Shown in pieces: positions 1 to 38,528 of a stretch of DNA of 44,634 bases. Numbering within the stretch: the first letter of the stretch is position 1; each line of letters opens with the position of its first letter. The translations under genes and the position numbers were made by a program. Origin of the DNA: Acidobacteriota bacterium (GTDB lineage: Bacteria; Acidobacteriota; Thermoanaerobaculia; Gp7-AA8); NCBI GenBank assembly GCA_019242175.1, contig JAFAVZ010000238.1:1-44634 (forward strand), given 5' to 3'. Below the pieces are notes generated by a model. That model saw only the letters and a program-made list of their open reading frames with translations. It was not told the origin of the DNA and did no database searches.

Positions 1-3000
1 ACGGCGAGCTGCTCGTCGATCCGTTCGACACGCGCTTCCCGAGCACCGAGCACGACGCGGCGCCGACGCCGCTCGGCAACGGTGCCACGCTGACGTTCGA
101 CCGCGTCGAAGTCGCGAATCGCGGATTCGCCCGCTTCGACGATCACCTGAAGATTGGCAACTTCCTCGACGATCGCGACACGATCGTGAAGGGCGCGAGC
201 GCGACCGTGGTGCTGTTGGGCGAGAAGCCGAGCCTCACCGTCACCGCGCCGACCACGCGCGTGGCGGTGTCGCGCGGCGCATCGCTCGACGTCACGTACG
301 CCGAGACGAGTGCGCTCGCGATCGAAGAGCGGCGCTTCGTGATCGGCACCAGCAGCGTCGCCGTAACGACGTTCTCGTCGCAGCCGCAGAACCAGAAACG
401 CAGCGCGGTCACGATCCCGGTCGACGCTCCGCTCGGCCCGATCACCGCGCAGTTCCAGATCCTTGATCGCGCCGGCCGCATCGCCTCCGCGGCGATCGCA
501 GTCGACGTGACGGAGAACGCGTCGCCGGTCGTCACGTCCTTGACCTCGACGCCGGCGTCGCTCTACGCGAACCACAACGTGGCGATCACCGTCACGGCCC
601 ACGACGACGTCGCCGTGAAGACGGTGCACATCACGACGCAGCTCGGCTCGCAGACGCCGGTCACCGTCGACAAGCCGATCGCGACGACGTTGCGGGACGT
701 CACCGTCGGCCACACGTTCCTCGTTCCGGGCACGTTCACCGGCGGCGGCACGCTGCACATCACCGCCACGGCGGACGACGTCGATCCGACCCACGCTTCG
801 AACATCGCCTCGTTCGATGTCACGATCCTCCACGACACGACGCAGCCGACCGTCGCGTTGCTCGAGCCGCCGCCGAATACGCTCTACGTCAGCGGCGGCA
901 GCACGACGATCCCCGTGCGCGCGACGGTCACGGACGACGAGACCGGCGTGCAGCGCGTCACCGCGCAGCTCGACGACGCGGCGCCGGTCACGATGACGAA
1001 GTCCGGCAACGAGTGGACCGCGCTCGTCCCGGTTCCGGCCCGTTCCGGCTCGGCGATCCAGCCGGCGAACGTCGTCGTCAAAGCGATCGACTTCGAGAAC
1101 AACCTCACCACGGCGACCGTCGCCGTGAACGTGAAGCCGTCCGGCGATCCGAATGCGCCGGCGCTCGCCTGGGCCTGCACGTCGCCGGGCGCGACGTATC
1201 CGCCGGGCTACACCGCGAAGCTGCGCGTGCTCGCCCGCGCCGCGAACGAAGCCGATCCGGTCGCCGACGTGAAGTTCTTCGTCGACGCCGACACGACCGG
1301 CGTCGCGGCTTCCACGATCGAGGGCGAGGCCTACGAGCTCGCGTACGTCATCCCGTCCGACAAGACGACGATCCCGGTCCGCGTCGAGGCGACGAACGCC
1401 AGCGGCCTGAAGTCCGAGATCTCCACGACCATCACGATCACCAACGCGACGCCGATCGTCAGCGACATGGCCTTGCTGGAGAACGACCGCCAGTTCGACG
1501 GCGGCGTCCTCCTCGTGCAGTCCGGCACGCTCACCATCGCCGGCCAGCACAACTTCACCCAGATCATCGTCCTCGACGGCGCGCGCATCCGTACCCAGAT
1601 CACGAACGTCGGCAGCGTCCAGCGCCTCCAGCTCAACGCGCCGAAGATCTTCGTCGCCTGCGGCGGCGCCATCGACGCCGACGGCAACGGCTACAACGCG
1701 AACGAGAGCGGCGTCGGTCGCACCTATCCGGACACGTTCAGCGGCGGCAGCACGCGCGGCACGGGTGGCAGCCACGGCGGCGCGGGCGGCAAGCGGCAGT
1801 ACGAGGAAGAGAACCCGCCGACGCCAGCCGCGACGTACGACTCGATCTACGATCCGAACCAGCCCGGCGGCGCCGGCTCCGTGGCCGACAACGCGACCTG
1901 CGACCCCTGCAACGGCGGTGGCGGCGTGATTCGCATCCAGACCGCCGCGCTCGTTCTCGACGGCGCGGTGAGCGCGGGCGGCGTCGTGAACACGAACGGT
2001 GGCGGCGGCGCCGGCGGCGCGATCCGCATCGACGCCGGTGACCTCTCCGGCGGCGGCTCGATCTCCGCGAACGGCGCCCGCGCCTACGACGATTGGCTCA
2101 CGAACGCCGGCGGCGGTGGCGGCGGACGCATCGCCGTCTACTACCAGCACTCCTCGCTCGACCCGACGCACATCGTCGCGGCCGGCGGCGCGGGCTCCAG
2201 CGGCTCGTGGTCCACGACCGCGCCGGCCGGCACCGTCTATCTGCAGCAGCGCGGCGCGGACGGCGCGAAGATCGCCGACCAGCTCCGCCTCGACAACCTC
2301 GATCGCGTCACCGAAGACGAGACGCCGCTCCCGGCGCTCGCCGCCGGCAGCGTCACGTCCGTCGCGAACGCTACGATCACGCTCTCCCAGCCGGTCGCCG
2401 ACTGGATCGACGGCTCGTGGATCGAATTCCTCGACGCGAACGGCGCGGCGATCTCGTCGTACCGCATCGCGTCCCACACCGCGACCAGCGTCACCGTCGC
2501 GCTCCCGACCGGCGAGACCGTCGCGAATGCGCCGGCTGGCAGCACCTACCGCCAGGCCTGGCTCTTCGACGACACCCGCGCCCTCGGCAACGCCCGCGTC
2601 GCGGCGTCGGAGATCCGCAGCGCGACGTACTTCACGAACGCCGAGAGCCGCATCCGCATCGATGCGCTCCACGCCGCGACGACGTCCGTCACCGGCTGGC
2701 TGCGCGTCGACGGTGCGCTCGACGCCAACGCGTTGACGGTCGATCACGGGGCGAAACTCGAGGCGAACGGCGCGCTCCACGCCACGACGATGCGCGTCCT
2801 CGACTCGTCGATCGTCACGCACACGGCGATCGCCGACGGCACGAAGAACTGGAAGCTCTCGATCGACGCCGGCACGCTCGAAGTCGACGCCACGAGCGCG
2901 ATCGACGTCACCGGCAAGGGCTACGACTCCTCCCGCGCTTCCGACCAGCTCGGCGGCGTGAGCGCCTCCTCCGCGGCCGGCTCCCACGGCGGCAACGGCG

Positions 3001-6000
3001 GCAACGACGGTCTGGCGACCGACGCGACGTACGACTCCGCGTTCGATCCGCAGCTTCCCGGCGGCGCGTCGTATACGTCGGCGGGCGGCGGCGTCGTTCG
3101 CATCCACGCCGACCAGTTCGTCCTCAACGGCAAGATCCTCGCGAACGGCGCGACCGACCTGCCGTACGTCACGGTCTACGGTGGTGCCGGCGGCGCGATC
3201 CGCATCGACGCCAACTCGCTCACCGGCAGCGGCGAGATCCACGCCGACGGCGGCGTGGCGCCGACTTACGGCGCGGGCGGTGGCGGCGGACGCATCGCCG
3301 TCTACGCCACGACGCTCGGCCTCGACCGCGCGCACGTCACCGCGCACGGCGGCCTCTACTCCGACGGCACGTACATCGCGTCGAATGGCGCGGCCGGCAC
3401 GCTCTTCTTCAAGACCGGCAGCGCAACGCTCGGCGATCTCGTCGCCGACAACGGCGACGTCCCGAGCTCGCAAATGACCGGCCTGATCGGCGTCAACTAC
3501 GGCGTCGTCTCCTCCTTCACGGCGACCACGGTCACCGACGCGCAGGCCCACTTCGCCACGCCGAGCCTCCTGCGCGGCATCCGCCTCTTCCTCAACCAGA
3601 ACCGCAACACGACCTGGCCGATCACCGCGAACACCGCGACGACGCTCACCGTAGGCTCGGCAACGACGCCGTTCTCGGCGCAGGTTGGCGACGCGATGCG
3701 CGGCCTCTACCGCTTCGACGCCGTCACCATCCACAACGCGATCCTCGCCACGCCCGACTTCCTCGAAAGCGGCGCGCCGTTCGACCGTTCGCTCCTCCGC
3801 GAAGGCAACGCCGCGCCGCCCACCGTCGACGTCGCGAAGATCGTCCCGGCGCCGTTCAGCACGGGCGTGATGGGCAAGGCCGGCGCGGTCGCCGATCCCG
3901 ACCAGCCGATCGTCGTGCGCGTGAAGAACGTCCGCACCGGCAACGTCTTCACCGGCACCGCGGCCGCCGACGGCGCCTTCTTCGTCCGCGTCGAAGGCCT
4001 CCAGGGCGACGCGCTCGCATTCTCGGCCAAAGACGGCCACCGCTTCCCGCTCGAGACGCGCGAAGTCTCCATCGGCACGCTCGTCGTCAACACGCCGGAG
4101 ATCACGCCGCTCTCGCCCGCGAACTGGAACGTCCATGCGAGCTTCCGCGCCGATCGCATCTCCGCGAACGGATCGCTCATGGCCGTCGCCACCCGTCGCG
4201 GCCAGGGCTCGGATGACGTCGTCCTCTTCGACATCGCCGATCCGAAGCATCCCCAATATCTGCGCACGTTCCAGACCGAGAACTTCGGCTTCGGGCCGGA
4301 GATGATCGAGGTCTACAAAGGCTGGGTCCTCACCGGCAGCCACGTCTACAAGGCGAGCGATCCGAGCCAGGTGCTCTCCTTCGCGCCGGGCGCCGGCGTC
4401 CGCCACGGCAACCTCTACTTCCACGACGGCGGCGGCTACGAGAACTACAGCGCCGACGTCGACGACATCAGCGACCCGGCGAATCCGAAGACGGTCGGCT
4501 CCATCCACCTCGGCCACAGCCGGGCCGACGACATCTTCGGCTTCGGCGACCGCTACATGGTCCTGCGCCTCGGCTCGCTCTACTCCGTCTACGACTGGAC
4601 GACGAAGACCAAGCTCGCCGATCTCGACCTCGGAACCCTGACCAACGGCGGCGAGGTCGGCCCGCTCCACTTCCAGGGCACGACCGCCTACGCCGGCTTC
4701 GAGAAGCCCGATCCGAACGGCGGTGCGACGGCGTACACGCTCGCCGTCCTCGACTTCTCCAACCCGGCGCATCCGCGCGTCGCGACGCAGATCCCCATGC
4801 TCGCGAAGGTCGAAGACGTCGCCGGTGCGGGCGTGAAGGGCGTGATCGCCGACAACATTGCCGGCGTCGCCCGCTTCGACTCGCACTCGCCGCTCGCGCC
4901 GGCCATCGAAGGCTACGTCGCGTTCGACGATCCGGCCACCGCCGTCGCCCTCGGCGCAAACGTCGCGTACGTCGCGTACGGCTCCGGCATCGCGGTGATC
5001 GGCAACATCCCGACGCCGCCCGTCATCTCCACCGAGGCGATCTCGCTGAAGGTTGCTTCCGGCACCGCAACGATCGCCGGCGCCCCCCATGCGATCAACG
5101 GCGGCACGCCGCCGACCACGGTGACGATCCGCATCCGCGGCGGCGCGAGCATCACCGCGCCGGTCGCGGCCGACGGCTCTTTCAGCGGCGCGCTCTCCGT
5201 CCATCCCGGCGACGCCCTCGAGCTCCTCGCCACCGACAGCCTCGGTCTCGTCTCGGATGTCGTTGCCATCGGCGCGGTGCCGTTCGGCAACGTCGCCACG
5301 TTCGCCCTGACCGTCGCGAACGGCGTGCCGGAGAACTACTCCGCGCGTCTCGTCGCCACGGAAGGCTCGGCCGTCGTCGTCGCCTCCTCCCACTTCTCCG
5401 CGCCGAATCAGGGTGGCTCGGATGTCGTCCTCGTCTTCGACGCGAGCGACGTCGCCCATCCGATCCTGAAAAAGTCGGTCTCCCTCGGCATCGACGTCAC
5501 ATCGGTCGTGATCGCCCGCGGCGTCGCGTACATCGGGACGCAACAGGGCCTCTTCACGCTCGACGTGCACAACCCGGCGGCGCAGGCCTCCGGTCCGTTC
5601 AGCCAGGAGTACGAGGCTGGCCTCTACGTCAGCGGCGACGTCCTCGTCACCGCGCCGCAGCACTATCCGCGCGGCTTCCTCCGTCTCTACGACGTCAGCA
5701 CGCCGATGGCGCCGCGCTTCCTCACGGACCAGGCGTCGCCCGACAGCAATCCGGTCGGCGTCTCCTTCGTCCCGTACGGCGACGACTACCTCTTGGCGTT
5801 GCGCCAGCCGGGCTTCAGCTATCAGGGCTCGCACACGCTGGCGGTGCTCGACCGCCGCAGCGCGTCGCTCGCTCCGATCGCGACGCTCGACCTCGACTAT
5901 CTGAACGCGTTCCGCGCCGCGGTCGTCGGCACGAAGCTCTACCTCGCCAGCGTGCAGCAACAGGGCATCGCCGTCGTCGACCTCAGCGACCCGGCGCATC

Positions 6001-14780: not shown

Positions 14781-15637
14781 GGATGCCCATGCGTTTCTTC
14801 CCCATCGCGGCAGCCGTCGTCTGCCTCGCATCTCCGGCGATCGCTGCGCCGGCAGGGCCGTTGTTTCCGAAGCCGCTGCACCTCGTGCGGCGCATCGACG
14901 ACCCGGTCGCCCGCACCACCCACGTCGTCGACGAATACTGCCTCGGCAACCGCGTCATCAGCATCAACGGCTCGCGCGTGGCCATCGTCGACTACGACCG
15001 CCGCGACATCACCGAGATCGACCACGCCGACGGCACGTACAGCATCACGAAGTTCGAGGAAGTGGCGACGGCCCGAGCGCAGCTTCCGCTGCCGCGCGCG
15101 AAGGCTTCGTCCAACGCCGCCGCGAAGCGCGCCACCGCCCTCCGCCCGACCGCCCTCGGCGTCAAGGCCACGACCACCTCGAACCGCTCGCTCGAACGCT
15201 GGCGCGCCGACCTCTCCGCCGGCCCGGAGAAACGCACCGTGGAGATCGGCATCGACCGCACCATCCCGATCTCGAAGGAGGCCGCCGAAGTCCTCGTCGG
15301 CGCCGCCTTCCCTTACGAACGCACCGACGAACAGGACCAGATCCTCATCGCCGCCGCGCCGGCAGAGACCGCGCTCGCCGGCGCCAAAGTGACGAACGCC
15401 AACGCCGCTCCGGCGCCGTACGGCCTCCCCTCGGAAAGCGTGACGACGTACGAAGCGGCCGGCGTGAAGGTCGAGATCCGCACCGCCGTCCTCCGCGTCG
15501 ACGACGAGCTCCCGCCCGCACAACTGCTGCGCATCGATCCCGGCGCGCAGCGCATTGAATCCCTTTACACCCGGATGCGTCAGGAGCTCGACGAGCTCGA
15601 CAAACTGCCGACGCCTCCCCCGGCGCGCAAACCGTGA
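14777..15637 (+). CDS. Secreted 286-aa hypothetical protein (operon accessory); fold not assignable from sequence alone
   Basis: ATG 14777 overlaps the stop of the upstream giant gene (ATGA, 14777-14780). Its own TGA (15635-15637) overlaps the start of the downstream giant gene (GTGATGA). The N-terminus MRMPMRFFPIAAAVVCLASPAIA/AP looks like a Sec signal with an AxA site. The tail is Pro-rich (LPTPPPARKP). Codon usage matches the neighbours. Confidence 0.8.
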   Translation: MRMPMRFFPIAAAVVCLASPAIAAPAGPLFPKPLHLVRRIDDPVARTTHVVDEYCLGNRVISINGSRVAIVDYDRRDITEIDHADGTYSITKFEEVATARAQLPLPRAKASSNAAAKRATALRPTALGVKATTTSNRSLERWRADLSAGPEKRTVEIGIDRTIPISKEAAEVLVGAAFPYERTDEQDQILIAAAPAETALAGAKVTNANAAPAPYGLPSESVTTYEAAGVKVEIRTAVLRVDDELPPAQLLRIDPGAQRIESLYTRMRQELDELDKLPTPPPARKP

Positions 15638-15717
15638 TGAGCTCACTTCGAACCTTCCCTCGCGCGGCGCTCCTCGCCCTCCTCGCCTTCGCCGGCGTCG
15701 GCATGGCCGTCCGCGCC
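15634..15717 (+). other. Sec-type signal peptide of the giant RHS protein
   Basis: The sequence M(M)SSLRTFPRAALLALLAFAGVGMAVRA/QTP has a basic n-region, a hydrophobic core and a VRA cleavage-type site. Confidence 0.75.
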
Positions 15718-30700: not shown

Positions 30701-33700
30701 TTTACACGCGCACGCCTGTGCAGACCGGCGCGAGCGTGCCCGCGCCGATCAACTACGGCCTCGTCGCCGCACGCGACTACGGTCTGCTCGTGCTCAAGCT
30801 CGATGCGAACGGGAAGCTGACGAACGACTCGCTCGTCGACGTGGTGTGGACGCCGGCCGGCGCGTACTCAGTCCGCGTGATCCCCGGCGCCGAGCTTGCG
30901 AGCGTCGTCGACGGTGCGGGCCGCATCCTTCTCATCGACCTCGGGCACATCGACGAAAGCGCGAAAGTCTCGACGCTCTCCGCGTGCGCCGACATCACGT
31001 GTCAGGGCGAGCTTTTCCCGAGCGCGATGGGCTCGCTGCAAGGCGCGCCGGCGGCGCCGGTACCGGGCCAGTATTGGGTGGAAGTGGGCAAGAACGACCC
31101 GCGCATCCTCTGGCAGTCGAAGTTCGATCCGAACGATCCGAACACGTCGACGCTCGCACCGATCATCGATCCCGAGACGGGCATCCTTTACCAGGCGAAC
31201 ATCGACAGCAAGACGGTGAAGATCGTCGCCGCCTCCGATCCACGCATCCGCATCGTCTCCGACCTCGGCAAGCAGAAGCTCGAAGAGGTGGGCGGCATCA
31301 CGCCGCTCGGCATCACGCCGCAGGCCGGCCTCGTGAACTGCAGCAGCGCGACGTGCACCGGCTCGGCCGCGGCGTTCCGCATCGAAGTGAGCCTGCCCGG
31401 CTCGATGGCCGAGTCTCTCGGCGCGGCGAACAACACGCTGCGCCTCGCCGTGGAAAGTGAAGTCGTGCCCGGCTCCGCGTCGCTGCAGATGCCCGACCCG
31501 CTGCCGCGGGCCCACCTGCGCCAACGCTCGCGCGCCGCGATCGTCGACCCCCGCGCGCCATCGGAGTTCAAGCTCACCCGCCTGATCCCCGAGGTCTCCG
31601 ATCCCGACGTTCAGAAACTACGCTTCCAACGCGCGTGGAACCGCTTCATCTCGCCGTGGATCGTGGCCGTTGCCGACCCCCGCGCGAGCGAGAAGTGGAC
31701 CTGGCCCGCGAACACGACGACGCAGAACAAAGAGGACGCCGGCTGCCACGCCTGCGAGCGTCCCTCGAACCTGAAGAACAAGCCCGAACCCGACGTGTTC
31801 GAGCTCTACACCGCCGGCCGCTTCATCGACGTCCGCCCCGAGTACACGTCCGCCGGCACGACCGACTTCGGCCCCGAGGACCCCGGATCTGCCACGCAGA
31901 CCGGCTATGCATACCTCGGCTCGTTCGGCCGCCTGGAGAAACGCATCCCGACGATCATGGCCGACACGATCCGCCCGACACCGATCGCAGTGGCGGGACA
32001 GGCGCCGCCAGTGGCGAACGGTCGTCTGCTGGAGACCACATACCTTCATAGCGGCGAGGTCGAGACCTCGACGTTCGACCTGCTCGCGGCGGGCCGTGCG
32101 GGGATCGACGTTGCGGTCGATCGCACCTACCGCTCGCGGACGATGGGAGCGTCGGCGTTCGGCTTCGGCTGGGAGTCGATCCTGACCGAACGTCTGCGCC
32201 TGATGCCGGACGCGAACGTGGAGTATCGCGACGCGGCGGGAGAGGTGTGGACGTTCAAGCCGCTGACGAATGGCGCTACGCCGTCGGCGCCGGGCGAGCC
32301 GGTGATCTTCGTCGACTACCAGTCGCCGGCGGGCCTGTTCCTCAAGCTCAGCCGCATCGAACGAGGCTGGCGTCTGCAGGATCAGCGCTACCGCTGCACG
32401 TACTTCGACGAGTACGGGCGCCTCGTCGCGCGCTCGGACCAGTTCGCCGATCCGCTCAAGGTGATGAGCGGCAACGACAAGGGCAACGTCGTTTACTACT
32501 TGTATGCGCCGGACGGACGCCTGGCGAAGATTGTCGATCCGGTCAATCGCACGACGAACATCACCTGGTACTCGGATGCCGACACGAACGTCACCGGCAA
32601 CTACCCGGGCCTCTTGAAAGAGATCGTGGACTGGCGCGGTCGGAAAGTGACGTACCGATACGACGCGTCGGGCCGGCTGGTGACGGTGCTCTTGCCGGAA
32701 GCGGCGAAGGCGCAAGACGCGCCGAATGCATACGACCTCACGGGCAGCAAGCGGCCGTTCGTCACGTACGGTTACCAGGGTCCGTTCACGGCGTACAACG
32801 ACGTGGTCGAGCTGTCCGGCAATCTGACGACGACCACCGATCCGGCGGAGAACGCTGGTGCAAACGGCGGCGTTGCCCGCGTCGAGTTCGCGTACGGCCT
32901 GCCGAACGACGCCAACCTTCATCGCGACCGGGTCGAGACGCAGATCTGGCCGTGCGCGAGCTACACGACGAGTTGTGCCGCGAAGTCGGCGACGTTCGCG
33001 TACGCCGACAGCACCCCGCACGCGACGGTCGTCGACATCCTCGGCCAGAAGCGCACATACGAGCTGGAGACGTCGGCCGACCAGCACAAGCACGTCGCGA
33101 AGATGCAGGAAGTGGACGTGCCGGTCCTGGAAGTGGCGACGATCCCGGCGGCGGCGCCGGTGACGATGGCGTCGTCGCCGAAGACGCGGGAGACGGTCTA
33201 TCACTACACGGGACAAGGGGTGCCGGACCGAGTCATCACGCAGAACCTGCGAACGCTGTTCACGGTCGTGCCGGCGGTGGCGGGCTCGACGCGCATCCCG
33301 GGCGAGATCATCACCGAGGTGCGGCGCGAGGACCGGGTGGGGCAGGTGGGCAACAGGCCCTCGAACGTGCTCGTCACGAAGATCGACTTCGATAATGCGG
33401 CAGGCGCCGATCCGCTCCGGACAGCGACGCCGATCGCGGTGAGCAAGCAGGCGGATGGCGGAGCGTTGGTCAAACGCGAGGTGCCGTCGCCCAGCAGCGG
33501 CTCGGGCAAAACGGTGGAGATGACCGACGGCGAAGTGAAGACGAAGCTGGAGTACGACGACCTCGGGCAGCTCGCCAGGCAGAGCCGCCTGGCCACGGGC
33601 GGCAGTGAGGATCCGTCGTTCGAAGTGAAGCCTACGTTCTACCCGGCCGCATATCAGGATGCGACGAACAAGCATCTCGCCCGCGGCCGCCTGCAGGACG

Positions 33701-36700
33701 TCGATCGCAGCGGACGCAAGACGCATTACGACTACAAGCTCACGTCGGACGGCGGGGAGATCGTGGTCGAGCATGACCTCGATCGCCTCGTCGATACGAC
33801 GACGCGGAGCGACGCGGCAGGCCGCGTGATCAGCGTCAAGGTCGCGCGCGAGCAAGCGGTGTTGACCAACGAGACGTTCGGCTACGACGCGAGCGGCCAT
33901 CTGCGCTTCCATCGCCGCATCCAGAGTGGTCTCGACAACCCGAACGTCGACACGACGGCGAAGTACGACGCGCTCGGCCGCGCGATCGAGACGACGACCA
34001 CGAACGCGATAGTGGCCGGCACGGCGCAGAGCCTGACGGTGCGCTGGACGTACGACCTGTCGGAGCGCAGGACCACGACGACGGATCCGCAGGTCGGCAC
34101 GGCCGCGGGTGTCGTGACGGAGACGACCATGGACGCCCTCGGCCGCGTGACGTCGATCGAACGTCACGATGCCGGCAACACGATGAAGGTCGCTTCGTCG
34201 ACGGCCTACGACTACGACGGGAACCCGGCGTTCGAGACCGACGGGGTGCGCACCTCGACGTTGCGCACGTACGACTCATTCGGCCGCACGACCTCGGTCC
34301 TGCAGTCGGATGGGACGTTGGCGACGGTGTCGCTCGATGCATGGGACCAGCCGGTCGAGACGACGACGTACGCGAAGAAGACGGGACCGACACGCGCGGT
34401 GACGTCGCGCCAGACGTTCTCCTACACGAACGCGGGGCGGACGAAGGGGAGCAACGCGCAGGTCGATGCGGAGCGCTTCTTCGCCATGCGCGAGGAGCTG
34501 AAGAACGGGGGAGCCGTGACGCTGACGGCGACCGCGGAGGTAGCCGGCGCCGGCGCCGACATCACCGAGGCGGATGTGACGCGGGTAATGAAGGTGACGC
34601 GCGACAAGGCGGGCCGGGTGATCGAGACGCTCGCCGGCGAAGGAAGCGGCGTCGGCGATCCGTCCACCCCGCCCGCCGGCTCGGGCAATCAGCCGGCGCA
34701 GAGCCGCGTGTTCCGGAAGGAGACGTTCTCGGGCTGGGACGGCGACCTGCCGTCGACGACTTTGGTCGAAGAGCCGCGCGCGGCGACGGCGAAGTACACG
34801 TCGATGACGAACTACGACGCGCTGGGCCGCGCGGTGGACGTGGTCGATGCGGGCAACGCGCAGACGCACATGGATCTCGACGAGGCGGGCAACGTCCGCG
34901 CGGTGCGTCCGCCGGGCTTCACCTCGTCGATGACATCGCAGTACGACGGCCGCGGCCTGGCGGTGTCGGTGACGCATCCGGACAACCGCACGGTCGACTA
35001 CACGTTCGATGCGCTCGGCAACCCGAAGTCGCGAACCGACGAGGCAGAGAAGACGACGACCTACGGCACCGATCCGCTGGGCCGCACCAACGACGTGGCG
35101 TATCCGGACGCGACGGGCACGAAGACGGTGTATGAGAACACCACGGGGCTCGTGGCGGCGACGAAGGACCGTGCGGGCCTGTGGCTCTCGTACTACTACG
35201 ACGCCGCCGGCCGGGTGACGGACATCTACGAGGATGCCACTCCGCGGAGCGCGAACCCGAGCACGACCCCGGCCGAAGGCACGACGCGCGTCCTGCATTA
35301 TGACTACGACGAAGCGGGTCGTCTGCATCGCGCTGCGAACAAAAGCGCAGCGTGCGAGTACGAGGACTACGACCTCTACGGGCGCCCGCGCCGCACGCGT
35401 TCGGTGCGCTACGCGAACGAAAGCGGCCTCGACGCGAGCCCGAAGGTGGCAGACGTCCACACGCAGGAGCACTACTGGTCGGTGTACGGCGCGGAGCGCC
35501 TGCGTTGGCGGATGCCGGCGGCAGGACAGACGGTGCCGGCGACGGATCCGGACTCGTCCTGGCGCGGCTGGATCACCGAGGAGCATGATGCGGGCGGGAA
35601 CAACTCGCGGCTCGGCACGGCGAAGTCGGCCGGCGGTGCGAGCCCGAACGTGGCGGCGATCCTCGAGAGTAACGCGCGCGGCTTCGGGCGCCCCGCGTCG
35701 CGCACGCGAACGCTGACGCCGCCGTACACGCTGCTGACCGACTACGGCTACGCAGATCCGGGCACGGACTCGGGCACGACGCCGCGGAACGGGATGCCGA
35801 ACAAGGTCGGCTACTGGTTCGGAGACTACGCGATGGGCGGGACGAAGCTCGAGCGCGACTCGGCGCTGCGTGCGCACGTAGCGACGGACATCGGGCTGCA
35901 GGACCGCAACTCGACGTGGAACTACGACACGCGGGGGCGTCTGCGCGAGGCGTCGCTCGTCGCCGCGAAGGAGCACGCGACGACAGTGACGGAAGGCCGC
36001 ACGGTTGCGGACTTCCGTACGCGCAGCGTCAACACGGACGACACCATCCACGACGCGCTGGGCAGCCAGGCGAAGACGGTGGAGCCGCAGAGCTGGACGG
36101 CCGAGCAGGATGCCGTGCACGCGATGATCGAGCGGACTGTGGGGGAGGACGGGGCGCGGACGTACGACGTCGAGTCGGGCCGCCGCAAGAGCGATTCGGT
36201 CTGGACGTACAGCTACGACGAGCTCCAGCGCGTGACGCGGATGGTGCGCAAGGTCGGCCCGCAAACGACGGCGAGCCAGGCCCGGCGCATCGACTTCGAA
36301 TACGACCCGAACGGCCGAGTGGTCGGCCGCCGTGCTTGCAGCAATACGGACAACGAGACCTGCGTGCTCGACACCACGCACGAGACGGCAGACGGACTGC
36401 CGGCCGATGTGACGTTCGTATGGGATCCGATCACGGACCGCCTGGTGTCGATCTTCCGCGCCGGCCTGAGCCAGCCGCCGGATGGATCGCCGTCGGGCAC
36501 GGAGGTCGAGGCGACGGCGGGCCTGCTCCGCCAGTACGTGCACGGGGACCGTGCGATGGACGACCCGGTGGAAGTGCTCGTCGCGGACGGCGGAAGCGTC
36601 AAACGCTACTTGTCGCTCTCGGACGAAGCGGCGACCGGCTCGCTGCAAACGGTGGTGAACGGCTCGGACGGAACGATCGTGGAGCGGGTGCTCTACGCCG

Positions 36701-38286
36701 ACTCGTACGGCGACGCGCCGCGTTACATCCAGGGCGCGCTGGTGGACAAGATCACGCTGGAGGTGAAGGCGAAAGATGGCGTCCTCCAGGAGATGACCAT
36801 CAAGGCGCACCTCACGGAGAAGCTCAACGCTCCGACGGTGGCGAACGGAGTCCGGCTCGCAGCGATGAAGGGCGAGGAGGTGCTGCAGACCAGCACCGCG
36901 ACGCCGACTACGGAGAACGACAACACGATCGTGTGGAAAGTGACGCCGTCGGACTGGACGGCGATGTCGACCGCCGCCGACGTGACCAGCATCGAGATCG
37001 CGATGCTCAACTCCCTGCGCGCCGGCTACTACGGCAACCAACCGATCATGTCCGCCCCGTCGTGGGCCGACGCCGCCTTCGGCGTACGCTCAGCCCCCGA
37101 CCGCCCAACCTACACCCGCCTTTCGATCGCGACGATCAACGCGATCATCGCCGCCCCACCCGCCGCGGAGAAGACGCTTTACGAGGTCCCCGATCTCTAT
37201 CTCGCCGCGAGCACCACGTCCCACGCGCGCCTGTTCACCGACTTCCAACTGCTCCCGTACCGCGAGCCCGCAAACGGCGCGATCTTCGCCCGCACTAGAT
37301 GGTACGACCCGTCGACCGGCACGTGGCTCACGCCGGACCCCATGGGGTACGTGGACTCGTCGAATCTGTATGCGGCGTTCGGGATGGACCCGGTCAATGG
37401 GCGGGATCCATTGGGCCTCAGCGAGAGCATTCGAGCGTCCATGGGGTTCGAGGAGGACATCTACAGCGACAGCGTTGGAAGGAAGTCGTGGGGATATGCC
37501 AAGGCTTGGGCGTACTCGTTCTACAACATCACCACGTTCGGCTTCGTATCGCGCCACGATGATCTTTACGAGACTTGGGAGGAGAACGGCGACCGCGGCG
37601 CCTACTGGCGTGGAACGGGAGTCGAAGTCGGCCGAGCGGGAGTGCAAATCGGCGTGACGTGGGCCACCGGCGGTTTGGGGGCTGGTGCGTCTGGAACTCT
37701 AGGCATGTCGATCCTTCGGGGTGCAGGTATTGGCGCGGGCGTCGGCGCTCTTTCCGCCGTGACGGGTGATATCTACGACCGCGCAACAGGTGGGGCTGGC
37801 TACACCAGCAGCGACTACTTCGCGAGTATCGCGGGTGGCGGTGTGTTGGGCGGAGTGATGGGCGGCGTCGGCTTCAAGATGCAACAACGTCAACTGTCGG
37901 AGACAGGGGCTCGGCGCATCATCGATCCTGAAAGAATCGACGCGTGGGATCGCGCAGAGAGAATTTACGATGACATCCGTGCGGACGCGTCGGATGTCTC
38001 TCGTATTGCGAAGAACACCGGATGGGCACAGTCACGCGTGGCTCGAATCAAAGAACACCTTTTCTTTCGAGAACATGGGCTGGATGCTGGAATTAAGAGG
38101 TTCGATGCTGATCCCGATATTGCGAATGCTTGGAGTCGTTTGGCAGCAGGCGATCATGTACCGTCGGATGTGGATCTGTTGCGTCACGAGATTTTTGAGT
38201 CCAAATTTGAAAGTCTCTTTAGGACGAACTATCGAACCGCTCATAATGCGGCGCTTCGAGCAGGTCGCAACTGGGCGGGGGAGTAA
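15634..38286 (+). CDS. Giant (7,550 aa) Sec-signal-bearing RHS/YD-repeat polymorphic toxin with a very long Ig-rich N-terminal region and a C-terminal toxin tip
   Basis: A single uninterrupted ORF. The start is GTG 15634 or, more likely, ATG 15637; the stop is TAA 38284-38286. It has a signal peptide. Many YD repeats are present (VTYRYDASGRL, FGYDASGHL, AKYDALGRA, TNYDALGRA, YTFDALGNP, YYYDAAGRV, HYDYDEAGRL, WNYDTRGRL, FEYDPNGRV). The RHS core terminus reads RTRWYDPSTGTWLTPDPMGYVDSSNLYAAFGMDPVNGRDPLGL. Confidence 0.95.
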   Translation: MMSSLRTFPRAALLALLAFAGVGMAVRAQTPVTYSESFDSYQPNRSVTGWSDTRVGSSRVIHEFTTYRDPLRSSNIVYGDRQSESGEHLLAGAHAVQTLHDDGHGDDRTGYFSTLTTKTFAGQGRFELKGRFLRTKDSTRIGFTFFSSYPEKDQYYLIGTGAKHYQHDDCDDDHLIAGALHNDSDHGEDDRNMELVGFSAGYLTGDTESSFVPDDDRWYWFRIQVDNASGVTSIRARFWADGASEPSTWPIDARDNGTTRLITGRIGMWSGGSGDAFIDDLTASSPQDRTAPTIAFYESNVKLDTATTAKFNRNPAIDVRVTDDLSSIPTKTIKLDGATYTNLTPITTEGSHTLTVHAVDSAGNAADATLPLFIDKTAPTITLLESGQPLPAQPKYKRTAAIEIKVADARSTFTTTATLDGAPYTSLTPITTDAAHVLFVKATDALGNVATVQVTIVVDTHAPAIQFKESGNVLDPAAEQKYKADPRIEIKVTDAVAATPGVTATLDGAAYTSNTPITTPGRHTIAVHATDDVSNAADATLRLVLDKNNPTVAVTVGGQPVDLTRTAVYKQNVAINVTATDATTSVVTKDIRLDGVAYVPGTTISTEQLHTLTVHAVDEVGNFTDVVFKFLLDKAPPRIELWEAGVKLDPAVVAKFRRNAAIEIRATDAASSVTYTATLDGANYVSLTPVASEATHHLTVHATDEAGNIADAALDLIVDKTAPVAAFTEGGNALDPTRTYSWNRSPIAIGVTVTDNLAGLQSNVTLDGSPYVSATPIAAEGPHVVKVHAVDVVNNVTDAQLSFVIDKTGPIIELTDGTLVLDPAARALFDHAPALGIKVTDKYSTSSYAAKLDGANWTVGQPIADGAHTLAIHAVDALNNATDVTLTMLVGTHPPVVTLTVGAAPLTENQLFNHSVTVDAHVVAVSTLFDVAATLDGAPVSLTLPIAGDGAHTLVVTATDELHHVGSVTVHIRIDTKKPVVTISANGDPLTSSKAFAAAVTLNATADEPTSSLTLTVDNAPFTLGAQVTADGAHTVTANATDQAGNAADPVTVTFHIDSHAPAVTLREGASPFPDRKTFNRAIVANADVTSATTPTKTATIDNVAYTLGTSYGVEGAHHLKVTATNAAGLSSVAEADFTIDLTAPTLQLLGNGVAFVEGKKFREDVIVTTTAADNLGTPTVAITLDGHTLEAGTTITEEKEHTIFAQAVDAGGNAADVGPFHFLLDKTKPVLTITVAGNPLANGDKFKTAITPAITVEDATATTETYTLDTHAYTKGDAISGEGSHTLTATVRDVVGNETVVGPLTFVIDTLPPVVTITEGGQPFTGGGKYKRVVKPIVTIQDTSETFVTATLDDGPYTINTDVATDGVHTLKIQVIDELGWPTVIPPIAFTIDTKAPVVVIQEHGAPLQNHAFLKQDAVLTFAIDDLTNTTVAATLDGDAYTAGQPVTTEREHTIQVTVIDELGTATTAGPLSFTIDKTPPVVQITEGAQPLVSGALLDHDAQPQLHVTDTTAWTVVAKVDGADFQFGDRIATEGGHTLDVSVTDAAGWTTVVPTISFFVDKTAPAVTVTQNGQPLESGALFDHDITPVVTYTDLSDTTLALKLDNAPFTTGTLVSAEAMHVLTGTATDRAGHVTTIGPITFTIDKSAPVITIKESGAAFVAKYGRDVVPQIAIDDLTAFTKEIVLDGAPYDGIAPIHADGNHTLTVTATDALHHTTTAPPIHFLIDQTAPVVTVTESGAPFEGKAYNRPQLTPVIAIADTTQTTTTALLNEAQFQSGTAITAEGKYTLSVAVTDELEHTTTVPTIAFAIDRTAPVVELVEDGKPLTSGLAFKDPVHPIANVHDTTEITVVATMDNAPYTLGNEVAAEGAHTLKVIATDEVGLSTTVQVSFVIDKTKPAITITAPAPGSAVGSGSVVVTGFADDAATVDVNGVNATIDPATHTFTTDTPVALTEGSNTITAVGVDKAGNVGSLTITVTVDNRAPDVAIAAPLANACINATQLEVKGVATDSSAMTIDVSVDDGTAVRATFGSDHKSWSATLPVQDGNVTIVVLGKDATGHESRLTVPVRIDTAKPVVTVLESGIAFGNGYYRRPLAPQIRVTEDDPRVAITSTLSTNGGAPAPFATGATIAAEGAYTLAVSAKDCANNTSDPLSIAFVLDVTAPSILSTDPPNGGAIGTTTKAITGTVNSDDVASVVIEGSSVAATLTGRTFTFNGVPLVDGTNRLALVAVDRAGNASRYDLAFTVKSKAPVVRILENDAPIAAGTIFRRPVAPTVTSDDADAHIDAKLNGAAFTSGTRIENDGSYTIIATATDAFNHVSESATATFSVRRTGPLVHITAPTENQTIDTDLVTVTGTVSPADVTSVRVNNTVATVTADGHFTAPNVPLDLGENLLVATAVDAAGNASTDAVSVTRAAGAPAILLNVPADGTVTNRPSTAVIGQVLSVPESGLVKVNATDVPVDSTGVFRKNDFPLTEGPNAINATVTGADGTTASVTVHVTADFTPPVLHVLANGTELVDGTRFATAPQLALDVTDNFPDVTSSFTLDGIAATSSTTIANGGHTLAAVARDKAGNETRVSRSFLVGSSASAGGCGLSGFDPANNATVNAARVTITGRSGAAAVLVNGVRAQLAGGTFAATIDLATEGANTVTVRCADANGTPTADAAETLTLYRYLSAPSIAITSPSGAEPIEVITDKITVTGTISAEATSGDVNGLPIPIGAATWSVPNVRLANGLNIITARARNAAGRLTIQTLRVVSRKGTPQIAITSPISGTQTGATAIDVSGTYTNVDPARITVGAIAATAHPLSDTTGTYSATVAIPANATTTLTATGRNRADEATTAAVQVQNVAGPSISISAPLDDTTYASTFAGQVTVTGTIDAAAGSTVQVNGVNATLTGNAFSAAIDLPAGAATPVVARVTTPDDKSALDSIRLLRLTGDLRVLDSFPTANAVGVDRAVLLLALFSNPLDGATVTAGTSVKLADASGAAITTSVFVDKDAISIAPQAALAAGTTYTLTIAGVKDIAGSALAAPFMLTFTTDFTAPAVAPTVNQSTVEGCLTTFTIRGRASATGARVRLDFEGVSQTATAAANGDYVFEVGLAGLTGFHVARLHEVGGDGTLSPEATVTFRLDCAGPQVLGATLDRAAKRVVIQFSKPMNGATLSVGPTGTIQLTPEGGSAVSGTVALNAGGDAATVETTADLSADTITLVVKRDVKDAAGLTLPADYRQVFSTSIAPPTTTGSGYVSGAVYDATTGRPLAGATLDIQQPIGAFSRNGGTAPAAKSAARLQPASLAEPTILTDARGRYTRVLPEGAYTVRAGALRHTTIWRQVVVSAGAGVLPIDVRLAERGPEVTTTGAAQTLDHGGDTVVTRAAQLSLASGSLPAGRKVLLTSVGGQSLAGLLPLGWSPLAAAEILVDESTSTPLPGAKLTFTLTAEESADAIAAAQPLSLVAYDNDRDEWRAVAAVLTPNADTHKVTVDISLSGNYALVFADKGTGLVTPPAATAGAALRGVDNPCVTPTDCSSLAGHSFDVDPKTVLPTQRSTAKLVVEGGAKKYPSGTAVQAFIDEQLNLADGTTLVDPPFATDLLLYRTLKGDFGTAFFHLAPTTQAASVTLRDGVDHIRVVEYPGRIDRGALIGVQGGRVPGDDKVAVEIPAGATSEALSATVASLSDQDLAAFGTVAGFRIAAGFTFAMTRANAPKIDLDGDGIDDPIAAPELLKPARATVTLPSVSVAANAQVIVVEVLDKTPFGAMLRLAARTTLAASATDTVRLFTTTAIDPTKLPVDGILRNGRYLVLVSNQPIAFAWGDLRLGAATGTPVANGRVTSLDGATVLGVADLTRFTGIFAVPIVAQPASQFVLVPRSTATGDGVAYTAAAVEAGRELHVGSLPLQGQAPRFESLTPADNAILGATDTFLIQAKFRDEIDSASVANGILLRNADSGALVPGVVVAAPRTDGTGSNVTFTLAPGATLNAATSYVISVEPSLRGRSGTPFGQTLVFHFSTRANNAALHTERIHISIPDAQGRATVTGLAGSLPAGAQAVAVRRGTDFITRYQTTATSDGSFTFQVGTNAEDAVTLTDEIDLQILDPLTHGIIAVVPLTPFVDPNGHAFIAPPTRTVTFTTAENITITVPAGAFDVPTRVEVGTAAREVFASVPSFDAGLTFLGGVNVQFDGIAKKQIDLSVPTPSGFDTSRGAYLGQLGMSVRGPRIMVVDAMRLDGGDLTTALGGSAGKAALRVTANNLNGLTTAADVKAAFLGIIASGSYIAMAMNVSPTWAMMSAVSPTNEIFVESLEEIFAWAYGSRFYLSQKSGKVLMPMPSNVAVKLVGVDGDTGITVFERQLQAAPPGDPLTAAFYPTITDKAVGPYPTYVSPGRLEVVDLISPEFTDDSRRGISLQYENDILKVTKSTTNGLPNNIHIEGFNVARGNEGQQQEGLATPMSIKGKPGDRIILLIGEKEVDPTAPLQVVFDKPIQVPDQLSDIISLQSTEPGSTDFVDITSQADLKIDSGDRRIRVILPASLGRGKKYRIVVRSGVKDASGLLQMGQQQTVDGTTTTTSGGPVGAKFDFLTRAPGGKLGTFDLPSGSARDMALSGNVLFMNAQEGGVFAYDVSDPAALTSGQVVKPFASSQDVNQPSESFRTWALATDNHGRLWTTVQANMFGYIQSYRVEDFIARKNDGSNSAGPCGEKIACHKGSSIVSYSLGTAANIPQGDSIVTTKPEAIPRKMQVLVQDFDTPEMSLQEVINQYGATVTPIAGAPEWVKLHIPITYNQSGNYWVQRTTFRNKTLGLSWSTDVTRTGTSAIDGVIGRTTDKFVKSTNMTTYGVITLFGFGVGVYDLNAVDSNDWTPKAPDTQTPITEQVLITDAKNPMQCDKTPPPPVACDPVEAANNGRQCAIPDLSLAPEAMIIPVRNGQGVPNPLQNSLVLYGLHAAMGVLDLKVVPPQQLEGDPNVDPLNPRATDPSCKRPSDGLVLARRMPTFDHPRLNQLRTLYNQAQFSGPQGASLPQPWGRFNSSAIYTRTPVQTGASVPAPINYGLVAARDYGLLVLKLDANGKLTNDSLVDVVWTPAGAYSVRVIPGAELASVVDGAGRILLIDLGHIDESAKVSTLSACADITCQGELFPSAMGSLQGAPAAPVPGQYWVEVGKNDPRILWQSKFDPNDPNTSTLAPIIDPETGILYQANIDSKTVKIVAASDPRIRIVSDLGKQKLEEVGGITPLGITPQAGLVNCSSATCTGSAAAFRIEVSLPGSMAESLGAANNTLRLAVESEVVPGSASLQMPDPLPRAHLRQRSRAAIVDPRAPSEFKLTRLIPEVSDPDVQKLRFQRAWNRFISPWIVAVADPRASEKWTWPANTTTQNKEDAGCHACERPSNLKNKPEPDVFELYTAGRFIDVRPEYTSAGTTDFGPEDPGSATQTGYAYLGSFGRLEKRIPTIMADTIRPTPIAVAGQAPPVANGRLLETTYLHSGEVETSTFDLLAAGRAGIDVAVDRTYRSRTMGASAFGFGWESILTERLRLMPDANVEYRDAAGEVWTFKPLTNGATPSAPGEPVIFVDYQSPAGLFLKLSRIERGWRLQDQRYRCTYFDEYGRLVARSDQFADPLKVMSGNDKGNVVYYLYAPDGRLAKIVDPVNRTTNITWYSDADTNVTGNYPGLLKEIVDWRGRKVTYRYDASGRLVTVLLPEAAKAQDAPNAYDLTGSKRPFVTYGYQGPFTAYNDVVELSGNLTTTTDPAENAGANGGVARVEFAYGLPNDANLHRDRVETQIWPCASYTTSCAAKSATFAYADSTPHATVVDILGQKRTYELETSADQHKHVAKMQEVDVPVLEVATIPAAAPVTMASSPKTRETVYHYTGQGVPDRVITQNLRTLFTVVPAVAGSTRIPGEIITEVRREDRVGQVGNRPSNVLVTKIDFDNAAGADPLRTATPIAVSKQADGGALVKREVPSPSSGSGKTVEMTDGEVKTKLEYDDLGQLARQSRLATGGSEDPSFEVKPTFYPAAYQDATNKHLARGRLQDVDRSGRKTHYDYKLTSDGGEIVVEHDLDRLVDTTTRSDAAGRVISVKVAREQAVLTNETFGYDASGHLRFHRRIQSGLDNPNVDTTAKYDALGRAIETTTTNAIVAGTAQSLTVRWTYDLSERRTTTTDPQVGTAAGVVTETTMDALGRVTSIERHDAGNTMKVASSTAYDYDGNPAFETDGVRTSTLRTYDSFGRTTSVLQSDGTLATVSLDAWDQPVETTTYAKKTGPTRAVTSRQTFSYTNAGRTKGSNAQVDAERFFAMREELKNGGAVTLTATAEVAGAGADITEADVTRVMKVTRDKAGRVIETLAGEGSGVGDPSTPPAGSGNQPAQSRVFRKETFSGWDGDLPSTTLVEEPRAATAKYTSMTNYDALGRAVDVVDAGNAQTHMDLDEAGNVRAVRPPGFTSSMTSQYDGRGLAVSVTHPDNRTVDYTFDALGNPKSRTDEAEKTTTYGTDPLGRTNDVAYPDATGTKTVYENTTGLVAATKDRAGLWLSYYYDAAGRVTDIYEDATPRSANPSTTPAEGTTRVLHYDYDEAGRLHRAANKSAACEYEDYDLYGRPRRTRSVRYANESGLDASPKVADVHTQEHYWSVYGAERLRWRMPAAGQTVPATDPDSSWRGWITEEHDAGGNNSRLGTAKSAGGASPNVAAILESNARGFGRPASRTRTLTPPYTLLTDYGYADPGTDSGTTPRNGMPNKVGYWFGDYAMGGTKLERDSALRAHVATDIGLQDRNSTWNYDTRGRLREASLVAAKEHATTVTEGRTVADFRTRSVNTDDTIHDALGSQAKTVEPQSWTAEQDAVHAMIERTVGEDGARTYDVESGRRKSDSVWTYSYDELQRVTRMVRKVGPQTTASQARRIDFEYDPNGRVVGRRACSNTDNETCVLDTTHETADGLPADVTFVWDPITDRLVSIFRAGLSQPPDGSPSGTEVEATAGLLRQYVHGDRAMDDPVEVLVADGGSVKRYLSLSDEAATGSLQTVVNGSDGTIVERVLYADSYGDAPRYIQGALVDKITLEVKAKDGVLQEMTIKAHLTEKLNAPTVANGVRLAAMKGEEVLQTSTATPTTENDNTIVWKVTPSDWTAMSTAADVTSIEIAMLNSLRAGYYGNQPIMSAPSWADAAFGVRSAPDRPTYTRLSIATINAIIAAPPAAEKTLYEVPDLYLAASTTSHARLFTDFQLLPYREPANGAIFARTRWYDPSTGTWLTPDPMGYVDSSNLYAAFGMDPVNGRDPLGLSESIRASMGFEEDIYSDSVGRKSWGYAKAWAYSFYNITTFGFVSRHDDLYETWEENGDRGAYWRGTGVEVGRAGVQIGVTWATGGLGAGASGTLGMSILRGAGIGAGVGALSAVTGDIYDRATGGAGYTSSDYFASIAGGGVLGGVMGGVGFKMQQRQLSETGARRIIDPERIDAWDRAERIYDDIRADASDVSRIAKNTGWAQSRVARIKEHLFFREHGLDAGIKRFDADPDIANAWSRLAAGDHVPSDVDLLRHEIFESKFESLFRTNYRTAHNAALRAGRNWAGE
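15720..16495 (+). other. N-terminal concanavalin/LamG-like jelly-roll head domain (tentative) with His/Asp-rich inserts
   Basis: The segment ends in ...RLITGRIGMWSGGSGDAFIDDLTAS, typical of the last strands of LamG/ConA-like lectin folds. Inserts HDDGHGDDRTGY (15931-15960) and HYQHDDCDDDHLIAGALHNDSDHGEDDRN (16123-16209) are present. Confidence 0.45.
16495..21313 (+). repeat. 19 tandem ~84-aa HYR-like / bacterial Ig-like coding repeats (period ~254 nt)
   Basis: Each unit has the form (I/V/L)D(K/T)xxPxhxhxExGxxL....(F/Y)......h.V.D.........LDG..Y....h...G.HTLTV.A.DxAGN. By eye, unit starts are at about 16495, 16754, 17008, 17265, 17527, 17786, 18045, 18301, 18553, 18802, 19051, 19303, 19558, 19810, 20062, 20314, 20566, 20812 and 21064, with the next boundary at 21313. 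Confidence 0.85.
21313..25690 (+). other. Heterogeneous Ig-like stalk: about 9 domains of ITAP..VxVxGxV...VxVNGVxA....F.....L..G.N.I.A.A.D.AGN type, three further HYR-like units, two SbsA-type Ig (Big_5-like) domains (about 24455-24760 and 25041-25340) and one carboxypeptidase-regulatory-like (TTR-like) domain (about 25363-25690)
   Basis: Big_5-like sequence: LRVLDSFPTANAVGVDRAVLLLALFSNPLDGATV..TYTLTIAGVKDIAGSAL. CarboxypepD_reg-like sequence: GYVSGAVYDATTGRPLAGATLDIQ...TDARGRYTRVLPEGAYTVRAGALRHTT. These assignments rest on motif recognition only. Confidence 0.55.
32041..37419 (+). other. RHS/YD-repeat shell (about 1,793 aa) including the RHS repeat-associated core terminus
   Basis: The N-terminal plug-like start reads YLHSGEVETSTFDLLAAGRAGIDVAVDRTYRSRTMGASAFGFGWES. 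It is followed by dozens of YxYDxxGR-type repeats and ends with PVNGRDPLGL (PxxxxDPxGL, 37390-37419). Confidence 0.9.
37420..38283 (+). other. C-terminal toxin tip (288 aa): a Gly-zipper/hydrophobic segment (about 37620-37880) followed by a ~130-aa unassigned domain
   Basis: The tip begins immediately after the DPLGL cleavage motif. The Gly-zipper segment reads GVQIGVTWATGGLGAGASGTLGMSILRGAGIGAGVGALSAVTG...IAGGGVLGGVMGGVGF. The distal domain reads ...IAKNTGWAQSRVARIKEHLFFREHGLDAGIKRFDADPDIANAWSRLAAGDHVPSDVDLLRHEIFESKFESLFRTNYRTAHNAALRAG. G+C is lower and codon choice shifts here (TTT, AAA, ATT, GAT). Confidence 0.8.
38277..38283 (+). promoter_or_regulatory. Shine-Dalgarno-like GGGGGAG 5 nt upstream of the immunity-gene ATG
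   Basis: The local sequence ctgggcGGGGGAGtaagcATG places the purine-rich block inside the last codons of the toxin gene. Confidence 0.5.
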
Positions 38287-38288
38287 GC

Positions 38289-38528
38289 ATGGCCTTCTAC
38301 ATCGAGATCAATAAAGAGAGCGAGGACGCTCGGGCTGCGCAGTACCGGTTCGAGGCCGACAGGCAAGGAGTAGGTCGGTTCGAGATTGACAAGGCAACAG
38401 GTCAAGTCGAGTTGCTATCACCAATGCCGGGCGACGAGAAAGAAAAAGTTTTTCAGCGAGCAGCTGTGAAAATCATTCGAGAGTGGCGGGAAGGCCGGCT
38501 GCCTGAGAGAGCAGAGTGGGCTTCGTAG
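38289..38528 (+). CDS. Putative cognate immunity protein (79 aa, cytoplasmic, no signal peptide)
   Basis: The ATG lies 2 nt after the toxin stop and has an SD-like site. It shares the reduced G+C of the toxin tip. A small acidic/basic soluble protein (MAFYIEINKESEDARAAQYRFEAD...) in this position is typical of polymorphic-toxin immunity genes. I recognise no family. Confidence 0.65.
   Translation: MAFYIEINKESEDARAAQYRFEADRQGVGRFEIDKATGQVELLSPMPGDEKEKVFQRAAVKIIREWREGRLPERAEWAS

Follow-up and report, generated by a model that had tools for sequence, protein, structure and literature searches.

The window analysed here is a stretch of 44,634 nucleotides (nt), positions 1–44,634 of contig JAFAVZ010000238.1, from a Thermoanaerobaculia member of the Acidobacteriota (assembly GCA_019242175.1; G+C content ~69%), and 86% of it, positions 1–38528, is filled by four co-directional genes that we refer to as g1 to g4 (Table 1). 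They comprise a giant RHS toxin gene (g3) with a putative immunity gene (g4), a gene for a small secreted protein with a predicted LolA-like fold (g2) and a second giant gene that is open at the window start (g1). Re-reading of the sequence agreed with the original prediction on these four open reading frames (ORFs), on the fraction of the window that they occupy and on the motifs at their three junctions, namely ATGA at 14777–14780 between g1 and g2, GTGATGA at 15634–15640 between g2 and g3, and the short gap ahead of g4. The ATGA motif is present, but the g1/g2 overlap that had been read from it is less secure. As GAGGA sits 5 nt upstream of ATG 14789, and P0001, a g2 homologue with 94% identity, is called at 282 amino acids (aa), g2 more likely starts at ATG 14789 than at 14777, in which case the two genes would be separated by an 8-nt gap rather than overlap. 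The coupling of g1 and g2 is tight under either start, and g1 to g4 are predicted to form one co-transcribed block.

All features of an RHS polymorphic toxin that can be tested in a sequence, that is a shell, a core with a DPxGL motif, a variable tip and an immunity gene, were found in g3 and g4, and g3 reads as a genuine Sec-signal RHS polymorphic toxin. The families named in the original prediction (RHS_repeat, TIGR03696, LVIVD, HYR, Big_5 and CarboxypepD_reg) all gave matches. The RHS repeats of g3 were recovered by PF05593 (E = 8.5e-20) and TIGR01643 (E = 2.7e-18), and the Rhs-associated core by TIGR03696 (Rhs_assc_core; E = 3e-11, 43.6 bits against a cut-off of 32.5). This core is closed by DPLGL at aa 7257–7261 (nt 37405–37419), a predicted autoproteolysis site. 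The Sec signal and the ~5,470 aa of immunoglobulin (Ig)-like and beta-rich domains that had been described ahead of the shell were both recovered, by Pfam and NCBIfam searches of tiles and by direct reading. At 7,549 aa, g3 also has about double the length of the largest RHS proteins that our search found with the same tip domain (3,374 and 3,939 aa), in keeping with the exceptional length claimed for it.

Table 1. Genes of the window and predicted features of g3, with coordinates in the window.
Feature	Start	End	Strand	Details
g1	3	14780	+	Open at window start; 4,925 codons without a stop from base 3; TGA at 14778–14780
g2	14777	15637	+	286 aa, or 282 aa if the start is ATG 14789
g3	15637	38286	+	7,549 aa from ATG 15637 (7,550 aa from GTG 15634); TAA at 38284–38286
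g3 signal peptide	15637	15717	+	MSSLRTFPRAALLALLAFAGVGMAVRA followed by QT; Sec-type, read directly from the sequence
g3 N-terminal domain	15718	16506	+	~260 aa, no assigned family; shared with the L118 (42% identity) and L120 g3-like genes
g3 stalk	16474	24486	+	Tandem array of ~30 divergent Ig-like repeats, each ~85 aa long (Big_13, Big_3_3, HYR, Glucodextran_B)
g3 non-repetitive beta-rich region	24487	30105	+	Mostly unannotated; Big_5 (three copies), CarboxypepD_reg
g3 pre-shell region	30106	32058	+	aa 4824–5474; conserved together with the shell in the L033 NTD-RHS protein
g3 DUF6531	32059	32256	+	aa 5475–5540; E = 5e-7; commonly precedes RHS shells
g3 RHS/YD-repeat shell	32608	37419	+	Ends in the Rhs-associated core; RHS_repeat, YD_repeat_2x and TIGR03696 matches
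g3 tip part 1	37420	37869	+	Linker and glycine-rich, moderately hydrophobic, glycine-zipper-like stretch
g3 tip part 2	37870	38283	+	~125-aa conserved C-terminal domain
g4	38289	38528	+	79 aa; ATG 38289, 2-nt gap after g3

Over aa 4824–6600, g3 is 32% identical to the RHS protein encoded at L033, one of the related loci described below. Just upstream of the pre-shell region, at aa ~4589–4622, there is a faint LVIVD match (E = 0.046), and a beta-propeller ahead of the shell is possible. BLAST found no similarity between g3 and g1. The N-terminal domain of g3 had no Pfam or PDB sequence match, and PDB sequence and profile searches with this domain, the pre-shell region, the tip and g2 were uninformative, returning spurious TPR matches; a weak goose-lysozyme match (E = 0.027) from these searches was not relied on.

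The 288-aa tip that follows DPLGL consists of two modules. Part 1 was also found on another RHS protein, P0281, with a different tail, and is a separate module. Part 2, with the invariant residues K..H, W, L..HE and FE, gave 1,501 matches at E ≤ 1e-3 among 1.84 billion representative proteins, nearly all of them at C-termini. Among the proteins that carry it are LXG, RHS and PT-TG proteins and a haemagglutinin-repeat protein of Rhizobium. It had no match in Pfam, NCBIfam or PDB sequences, and is predicted to be a widespread, unannotated, enzyme-like toxin domain. Since the domain in P0269 (aa 1584–1840) is not terminal and precedes Tox-REase-2, its role may at times be that of a pre-toxin or accessory module and not of the actual toxin. 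P0269 and P0179 both carry LysM.

The small gene that follows g3 is likely to encode the cognate immunity protein. On the unrelated contig L117, a g4 homologue (41% identity, E = 1e-24) lies directly 3' of a toxin-domain homologue with 57% identity, in line with the claim of a toxin and immunity tip; an 83-aa Priestia gene placed like g4 has no similarity to it. As g4 lacks a signal peptide, the tip would be expected to act in the cytoplasm of the target. The G+C content at third codon positions (GC3) is 0.89 in the shell, 0.71 in tip part 1, 0.50 in tip part 2 and 0.59 in g4, and the break falls right after DPLGL (37405–38528). Because of this foreign composition, the tip and g4 were probably acquired as a cassette. 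We looked in the window for orphan toxin and immunity cassettes downstream of g4 and found none.

ORFs of this size could also be the product of a chimeric assembly or of expanded or collapsed repeat arrays, an error that the original prediction had named as one that would refute it. The sequence is of metagenome type, ~8 kb of g3 encodes repetitive protein sequence, and aa ~2,700–4,820 of g3 are backed by the window alone. The Ig repeats of g3, however, are mutually only ~30% identical as protein, TRF detected no high-identity or long DNA tandem repeats in the window, and in-frame GC3 stays uniformly at 0.88–0.95 along both giant ORFs. In addition, the independently assembled L004 (Logan SRR31724253) runs colinear with the window over 3,330 aa of g1, the whole of g2 and 2,695 aa of g3, at 87–94% aa identity across the three genes, and L033 spans the junction of pre-shell region and shell as one ORF. 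Given the even GC3, the lack of long DNA repeats and the colinearity of L004, the giant ORFs are real, and we rejected an assembly artefact as highly improbable.

The visible part of g1 is built from repeated ~400-aa modules that combine an LVIVD-type beta-propeller with Ig-like domains (Pfam matches: LVIVD, Beta_propel, Big_6 and Big_7), with an LVIVD propeller at the C-terminus. Its aa 1–230 align to aa ~3085–3314 of giant proteins that are encoded after g2 homologues at other loci (E down to 1e-28), and the g1 homologue in L004 is at least 7,528 aa long and still partial. By this homology, g1 belongs to a lineage-specific family of giants of 6,800–8,000 aa, and full-length g1 would be a secreted protein of ~8,000 aa. 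A homology search with the last 700 aa of g1 returned fragments only, and a metagenome scan with its first 250 aa gave no match.

g2 carries a Sec signal and is predicted to be periplasmic. We found 81 homologues, none of which has a Pfam domain, and exact look-ups of the protein from both candidate starts gave no match. The AlphaFold2 model of g2, computed from 46 sequences (predicted local distance difference test score (pLDDT) 88; predicted TM-score 0.81), matches the LolA/LolB fold, an open 11-stranded beta-barrel with a helical lid. When this model was compared with the PDB using Foldseek, the best match was LolA (8cgm_A; E = 2.9e-7), and further neighbours were LolB, RseB/MucB and ependymin (EPDR1), at E up to 1e-3; the TM-scores were modest, 0.3–0.5. 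The model thus places g2 among LolA/LolB/RseB-like open beta-barrels, whereas by sequence it falls outside the LolA/LolB families, none of the 46 family members matching a LolA-type Pfam family even at E ≤ 1. The g2 family is unannotated and restricted to Acidobacteriota/Thermoanaerobaculia.

The surroundings of g2 homologues were surveyed for ORFs on both sides at 33 loci from genomes, all of them metagenome-assembled genomes of Acidobacteriota/Thermoanaerobaculia, and at 77 loci from metagenomes, which gave 104 unique loci, 83 of them with downstream DNA present. Directly downstream of the g2 homologue, 79 of the 83 encode a protein whose N-terminus is a conserved Ig-like domain of 146 aa (mean column identity 67%), which we refer to as the NTD. 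Most of these 79 proteins (64) are of the giant type, with ~6,800 aa, 13 are too short to classify, and two, at L021 and L033, continue as RHS proteins; a third RHS protein, recognised by its YD-like continuation, is counted among the 13 short ones (L007/P0115). The other four loci are L004, which is like the window, and three without an NTD downstream. Two of these three, L092 (3406–4044) and L099 (9971–10606), encode ~212-aa paralogues of g2 with 32–36% identity, in a context that is shared between them and differs from that of g2 loci, and may be an outgroup with another function.

Comparison of the RHS loci with their nearest giant loci suggested how this distribution arose. DNA identity spans g2 and the NTD and ends at the end of the NTD in three pairs, L021/L020 (88%), L033/L028 and L007/L008, which indicates that g2 and the NTD behave as a cassette onto which different bodies have been recombined. 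N-terminal trafficking modules of polymorphic toxins behave in the same way. Many short contigs or gene calls, P0099, P0111, P0114, P0119 and P0122 among them, stop exactly at the NTD boundary (...RNY-D/E-VY); assembly breaks at this point suggest that, within a single population, near-identical g2-NTD cassettes lead into different bodies. When the NTD profile was used for a homology search, nothing but short fragments came back, which gave no count of passenger types. The model of the NTD, with pLDDT >90 in its core, is an Ig-like sandwich whose structural neighbours (Ig or cohesin) are weak.

Two further contigs carry unusual NTD proteins. At L064 the NTD is joined to a g1-like C-terminal LVIVD propeller: this 'mini' member (1703–4305) consists of the NTD, ~150 aa of the next region of the giants and then the propeller, which is 42% identical to g1 aa 4418–4892, and an apparent frameshift splits its ORF. 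At L115 (10001–15724; ERZ25039504 contig_21939, 1.88 Mb) a 179-aa NTD ORF overlaps a 1,280-aa RHS ORF, probably a single NTD-RHS toxin split by a frameshift; next come a gene for a 422-aa PT-TG protein and a HicA-like gene.

Upstream of g2, no conserved secretion genes were found within 8 kb at 35 loci. An AraC-type helix-turn-helix gene (HTH_18) lies 100–270 nt upstream of g2 at seven of the 35 (for example L005 9162–9659) and may be a local regulator of the operon of g2 and the giant; unrelated histidine kinases were also found upstream of g2 among these loci.

The original prediction had put forward both g1 and g2 as possible dedicated partners of an RHS fibre. For g1, support came from three contigs in which a g1-like C-terminus is followed by a g3-like gene: L004, and the divergent L118 and L120, where the g3-like gene starts 1 nt and 42 nt, respectively, after the stop of a g1-like C-terminus with ~50% identity to g1. 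The likeness to g3 in L118 and L120 was read from the N-terminal part, both genes encoding the signal peptide and N-terminal domain of g3; in L118 it extends over 373 aa at 34% identity, the first Ig repeats included. A tandem of g1-type and g3-type genes is therefore conserved in at least three lineages. DNA read at the other ~64 giant loci ended before the gene that follows the giant.

Alternatively, the two halves of the block could be independent neighbours, g1 and g2 being the common pair of giant and LolA-like protein in permuted order, and g3 and g4 a self-sufficient toxin module co-transcribed with it by chance. Members of the g2 family are paired with NTD giants at 64 or more loci with no RHS gene in the DNA retrieved, g3 has no NTD, and a class of Sec-signal RHS toxins that lack accessory genes is recognised (Zhang et al. 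2012, PMC3482391, Table 1). The recurrence of a g3-like gene 1–42 nt after a g1-like C-terminus on two divergent contigs as well as in L004, together with the tight gene junctions in the window, argues otherwise, as does the position of g2 itself, which lies downstream of a giant only in the window and L004 and at none of the 60 other loci where the upstream DNA exceeds 1.5 kb. We regard a chance association as rather unlikely, and consider it reasonably probable that the toxin module of g3 and g4 and the module of giant and g2-NTD, brought together in one block, belong to one surface system.

The proposed role of g2 fared less clearly. It does lie beside RHS genes in L021, L033 and L007, so that the finding named as fatal to the original prediction, homologues that never co-occur with RHS genes, was not obtained for g2; its partnership is, however, not specific to RHS proteins, and g3 itself lacks the NTD. 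It could be argued that g2 is nevertheless a dedicated chaperone or export factor for g3, acting through the N-terminal domain of g3. g2 precedes its presumed client in 79 of 83 loci, its stop overlaps the start of g3, and RHS toxins are already served by the cassette of g2 and NTD at three loci (L021, L033 and L007). Yet the N-terminal domain of g3 is unrelated to the NTD, giving no match to the NTD profile, and the g3-like genes of L118 and L120 share this domain with no g2 upstream, which makes such a role for g2 improbable.

Since g2 and the NTD move as a unit and have been grafted onto RHS toxins elsewhere, we favour, tentatively, their interpretation as a trafficking or anchoring cassette. 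A further-reaching reading is that the LolA-fold protein and the NTD constitute an undescribed Thermoanaerobaculia pathway for export or outer-membrane anchoring of both ~7,000-aa giants and RHS toxins, and that in the lineage of the window the g1-type and g3 proteins act as two fibres in contact-dependent killing; we think this possible, if doubtful. In the favoured reading itself, g2 would bind or chaperone the NTD in the periplasm and hand the NTD passenger to the outer membrane, or tether it there. g3 would be Sec-exported, with the Ig stalk and ~2,500 aa of further beta-rich domains carrying an RHS shell with a DUF6531 cap. Inside this shell would lie the 288-aa tip, to be cut free at DPLGL, and the glycine-zipper-like segment of the tip would mediate membrane entry into the target cell, where the ~125-aa tip domain would act in the cytoplasm; g4 would be the cytoplasmic immunity protein. 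The adhesive g1-type giant and the toxin-tipped g3 giant would probably cooperate as one surface system.

Several observations weigh against the favoured reading. Its main weakness is that g3, directly downstream of g2, lacks the only partner feature that we could define for g2: the NTD profile found no NTD in g3, in g4 or in the visible part of g1. The N-terminus of g1 lies outside the window, and an NTD on g1 is expected from family homology alone. In L118 and L120 the g1-like gene leads to the g3-like one with no g2 in between, an integrase fragment takes the place of the g3-like gene after the more distant g1-like C-terminus of L119, and the adjacency of g1 to g3 was seen in three lineages only (L004, L118 and L120). 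At L115, the fourth NTD-RHS locus, a g2 homologue is missing upstream. Proteins of the LolA fold are normally lipid-binding, yet a lipobox is absent from the giants and from g3. Finally, the NTD model is that of a generic Ig-like sandwich and offers no clue to a mechanism.

It is an open question by what means RHS toxins exported through Sec get across the outer membrane of diderms or attach to it, and such toxins are filed under a default class, 'Sec/type II secretion system (T2SS)'. This locus ties a Sec-exported RHS toxin to a modular pair of LolA-fold protein and NTD, and offers a testable candidate for the missing step; if correct, a LolA-fold and NTD pathway would add a new mode of trafficking to the catalogue of polymorphic toxins. 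It also defines an abundant and wholly unannotated family of proteins of 6,800–8,000 aa in a widespread soil lineage.

In the remainder of the window, the ~1.9 kb that follow g4 (38529–40400) contain no convincing gene, the ORFs there being Arg-rich and without GC3 signal, and no Rfam family, tRNA, orphan Rhs tip or clear plus-strand terminator was found in them; Rfam and tRNA scans of the window as a whole were also empty. An ORF of 721 aa at positions 40404–42569 (+ strand) has a signal peptide and a C-terminal transmembrane helix; it also matched a choice-of-anchor X motif (NCBIfam, 27 bits) and, weakly, VWA. VWA plus Big_7 proteins also occur near the pair of g2 and giant in L001, and proteins of this type may be recurrent neighbours of that pair.

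Compared with known delivery systems, g3 stands closest to the Sec/'T2SS' class of RHS toxins, of which Bacillus subtilis WapA is a characterised example. Like these toxins, g3 has a signal peptide, an RHS shell, a DPxGL core, a swappable C-terminal toxin and an adjacent immunity gene. It differs from them in its length, with ~5,470 aa of Ig-like and beta-rich sequence ahead of the shell, and in being embedded with a LolA-fold gene and another giant. The host of g3 is moreover a diderm, so that an outer-membrane step is needed, unlike in the WapA-type setting, and no cell-wall-binding domain was found in g3.

For the other routes, the original prediction had stated that their hallmarks are missing from the window, and indeed no tile of the window, which opens within g1 and covers nothing upstream of that gene, matched PAAR, VgrG, Hcp, TcA/SpvB, two-partner secretion (TPS)/TpsB or type I secretion system (T1SS) families. 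Type VI secretion system (T6SS) Rhs effectors such as Tse5 share with g3 the shell, the core autoproteolysis motif and the encapsulated tip, and the Tse5 tip is glycine-zipper and membrane-active (PMC10684867). These effectors carry an N-terminal PAAR domain or a VgrG/Hcp fusion or adaptor and no Sec signal, whereas the g3 locus has no PAAR, VgrG or Eag chaperone, and the Sec-type signal of g3 is not compatible with its being loaded onto a T6SS spike in the cytoplasm. Tc toxins (TcB-TcC) and teneurins resemble g3 in having a YD/RHS shell after a plug and a beta-propeller, the latter only possibly present in g3, and teneurins also in their long N-terminal extracellular arrays. The SpvB/TcB N-terminal region and TcA gene of Tc toxins are, however, not found in the window, and a TEN_YD-shell is not reported for g3.

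Very long surface filaments are also formed by CdiA and by giant Ig-repeat adhesins such as SiiE (PMC6272769) and a Mobiluncus adhesin of 7,651 aa (PMC10619420), and CdiA shares with g3 a polymorphic toxin tip; the tip domain of g3 is itself common to LXG, PT-TG and CdiA-like carriers. In contrast to two-partner secretion and contact-dependent inhibition systems and to these adhesins, the window has no TPS domain, TpsB barrel gene or filamentous haemagglutinin (FHA) repeats, nor any sortase motif or signal or genes of a T1SS, and the toxin of g3, unlike that of CdiA, lies inside an RHS shell. g2 in turn resembles RseB, a soluble periplasmic protein encoded beside its presumed client, and differs from LolA and LolB, lacking membership of their Pfam families and having clients that are not lipoproteins; we found no description in the literature of RHS toxins or giant proteins that have a LolA-fold protein as partner. 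The toxin type of g3 and g4 is therefore a known one, and what may be new is the accessory g2-NTD cassette and, potentially, the mode of trafficking that it represents.

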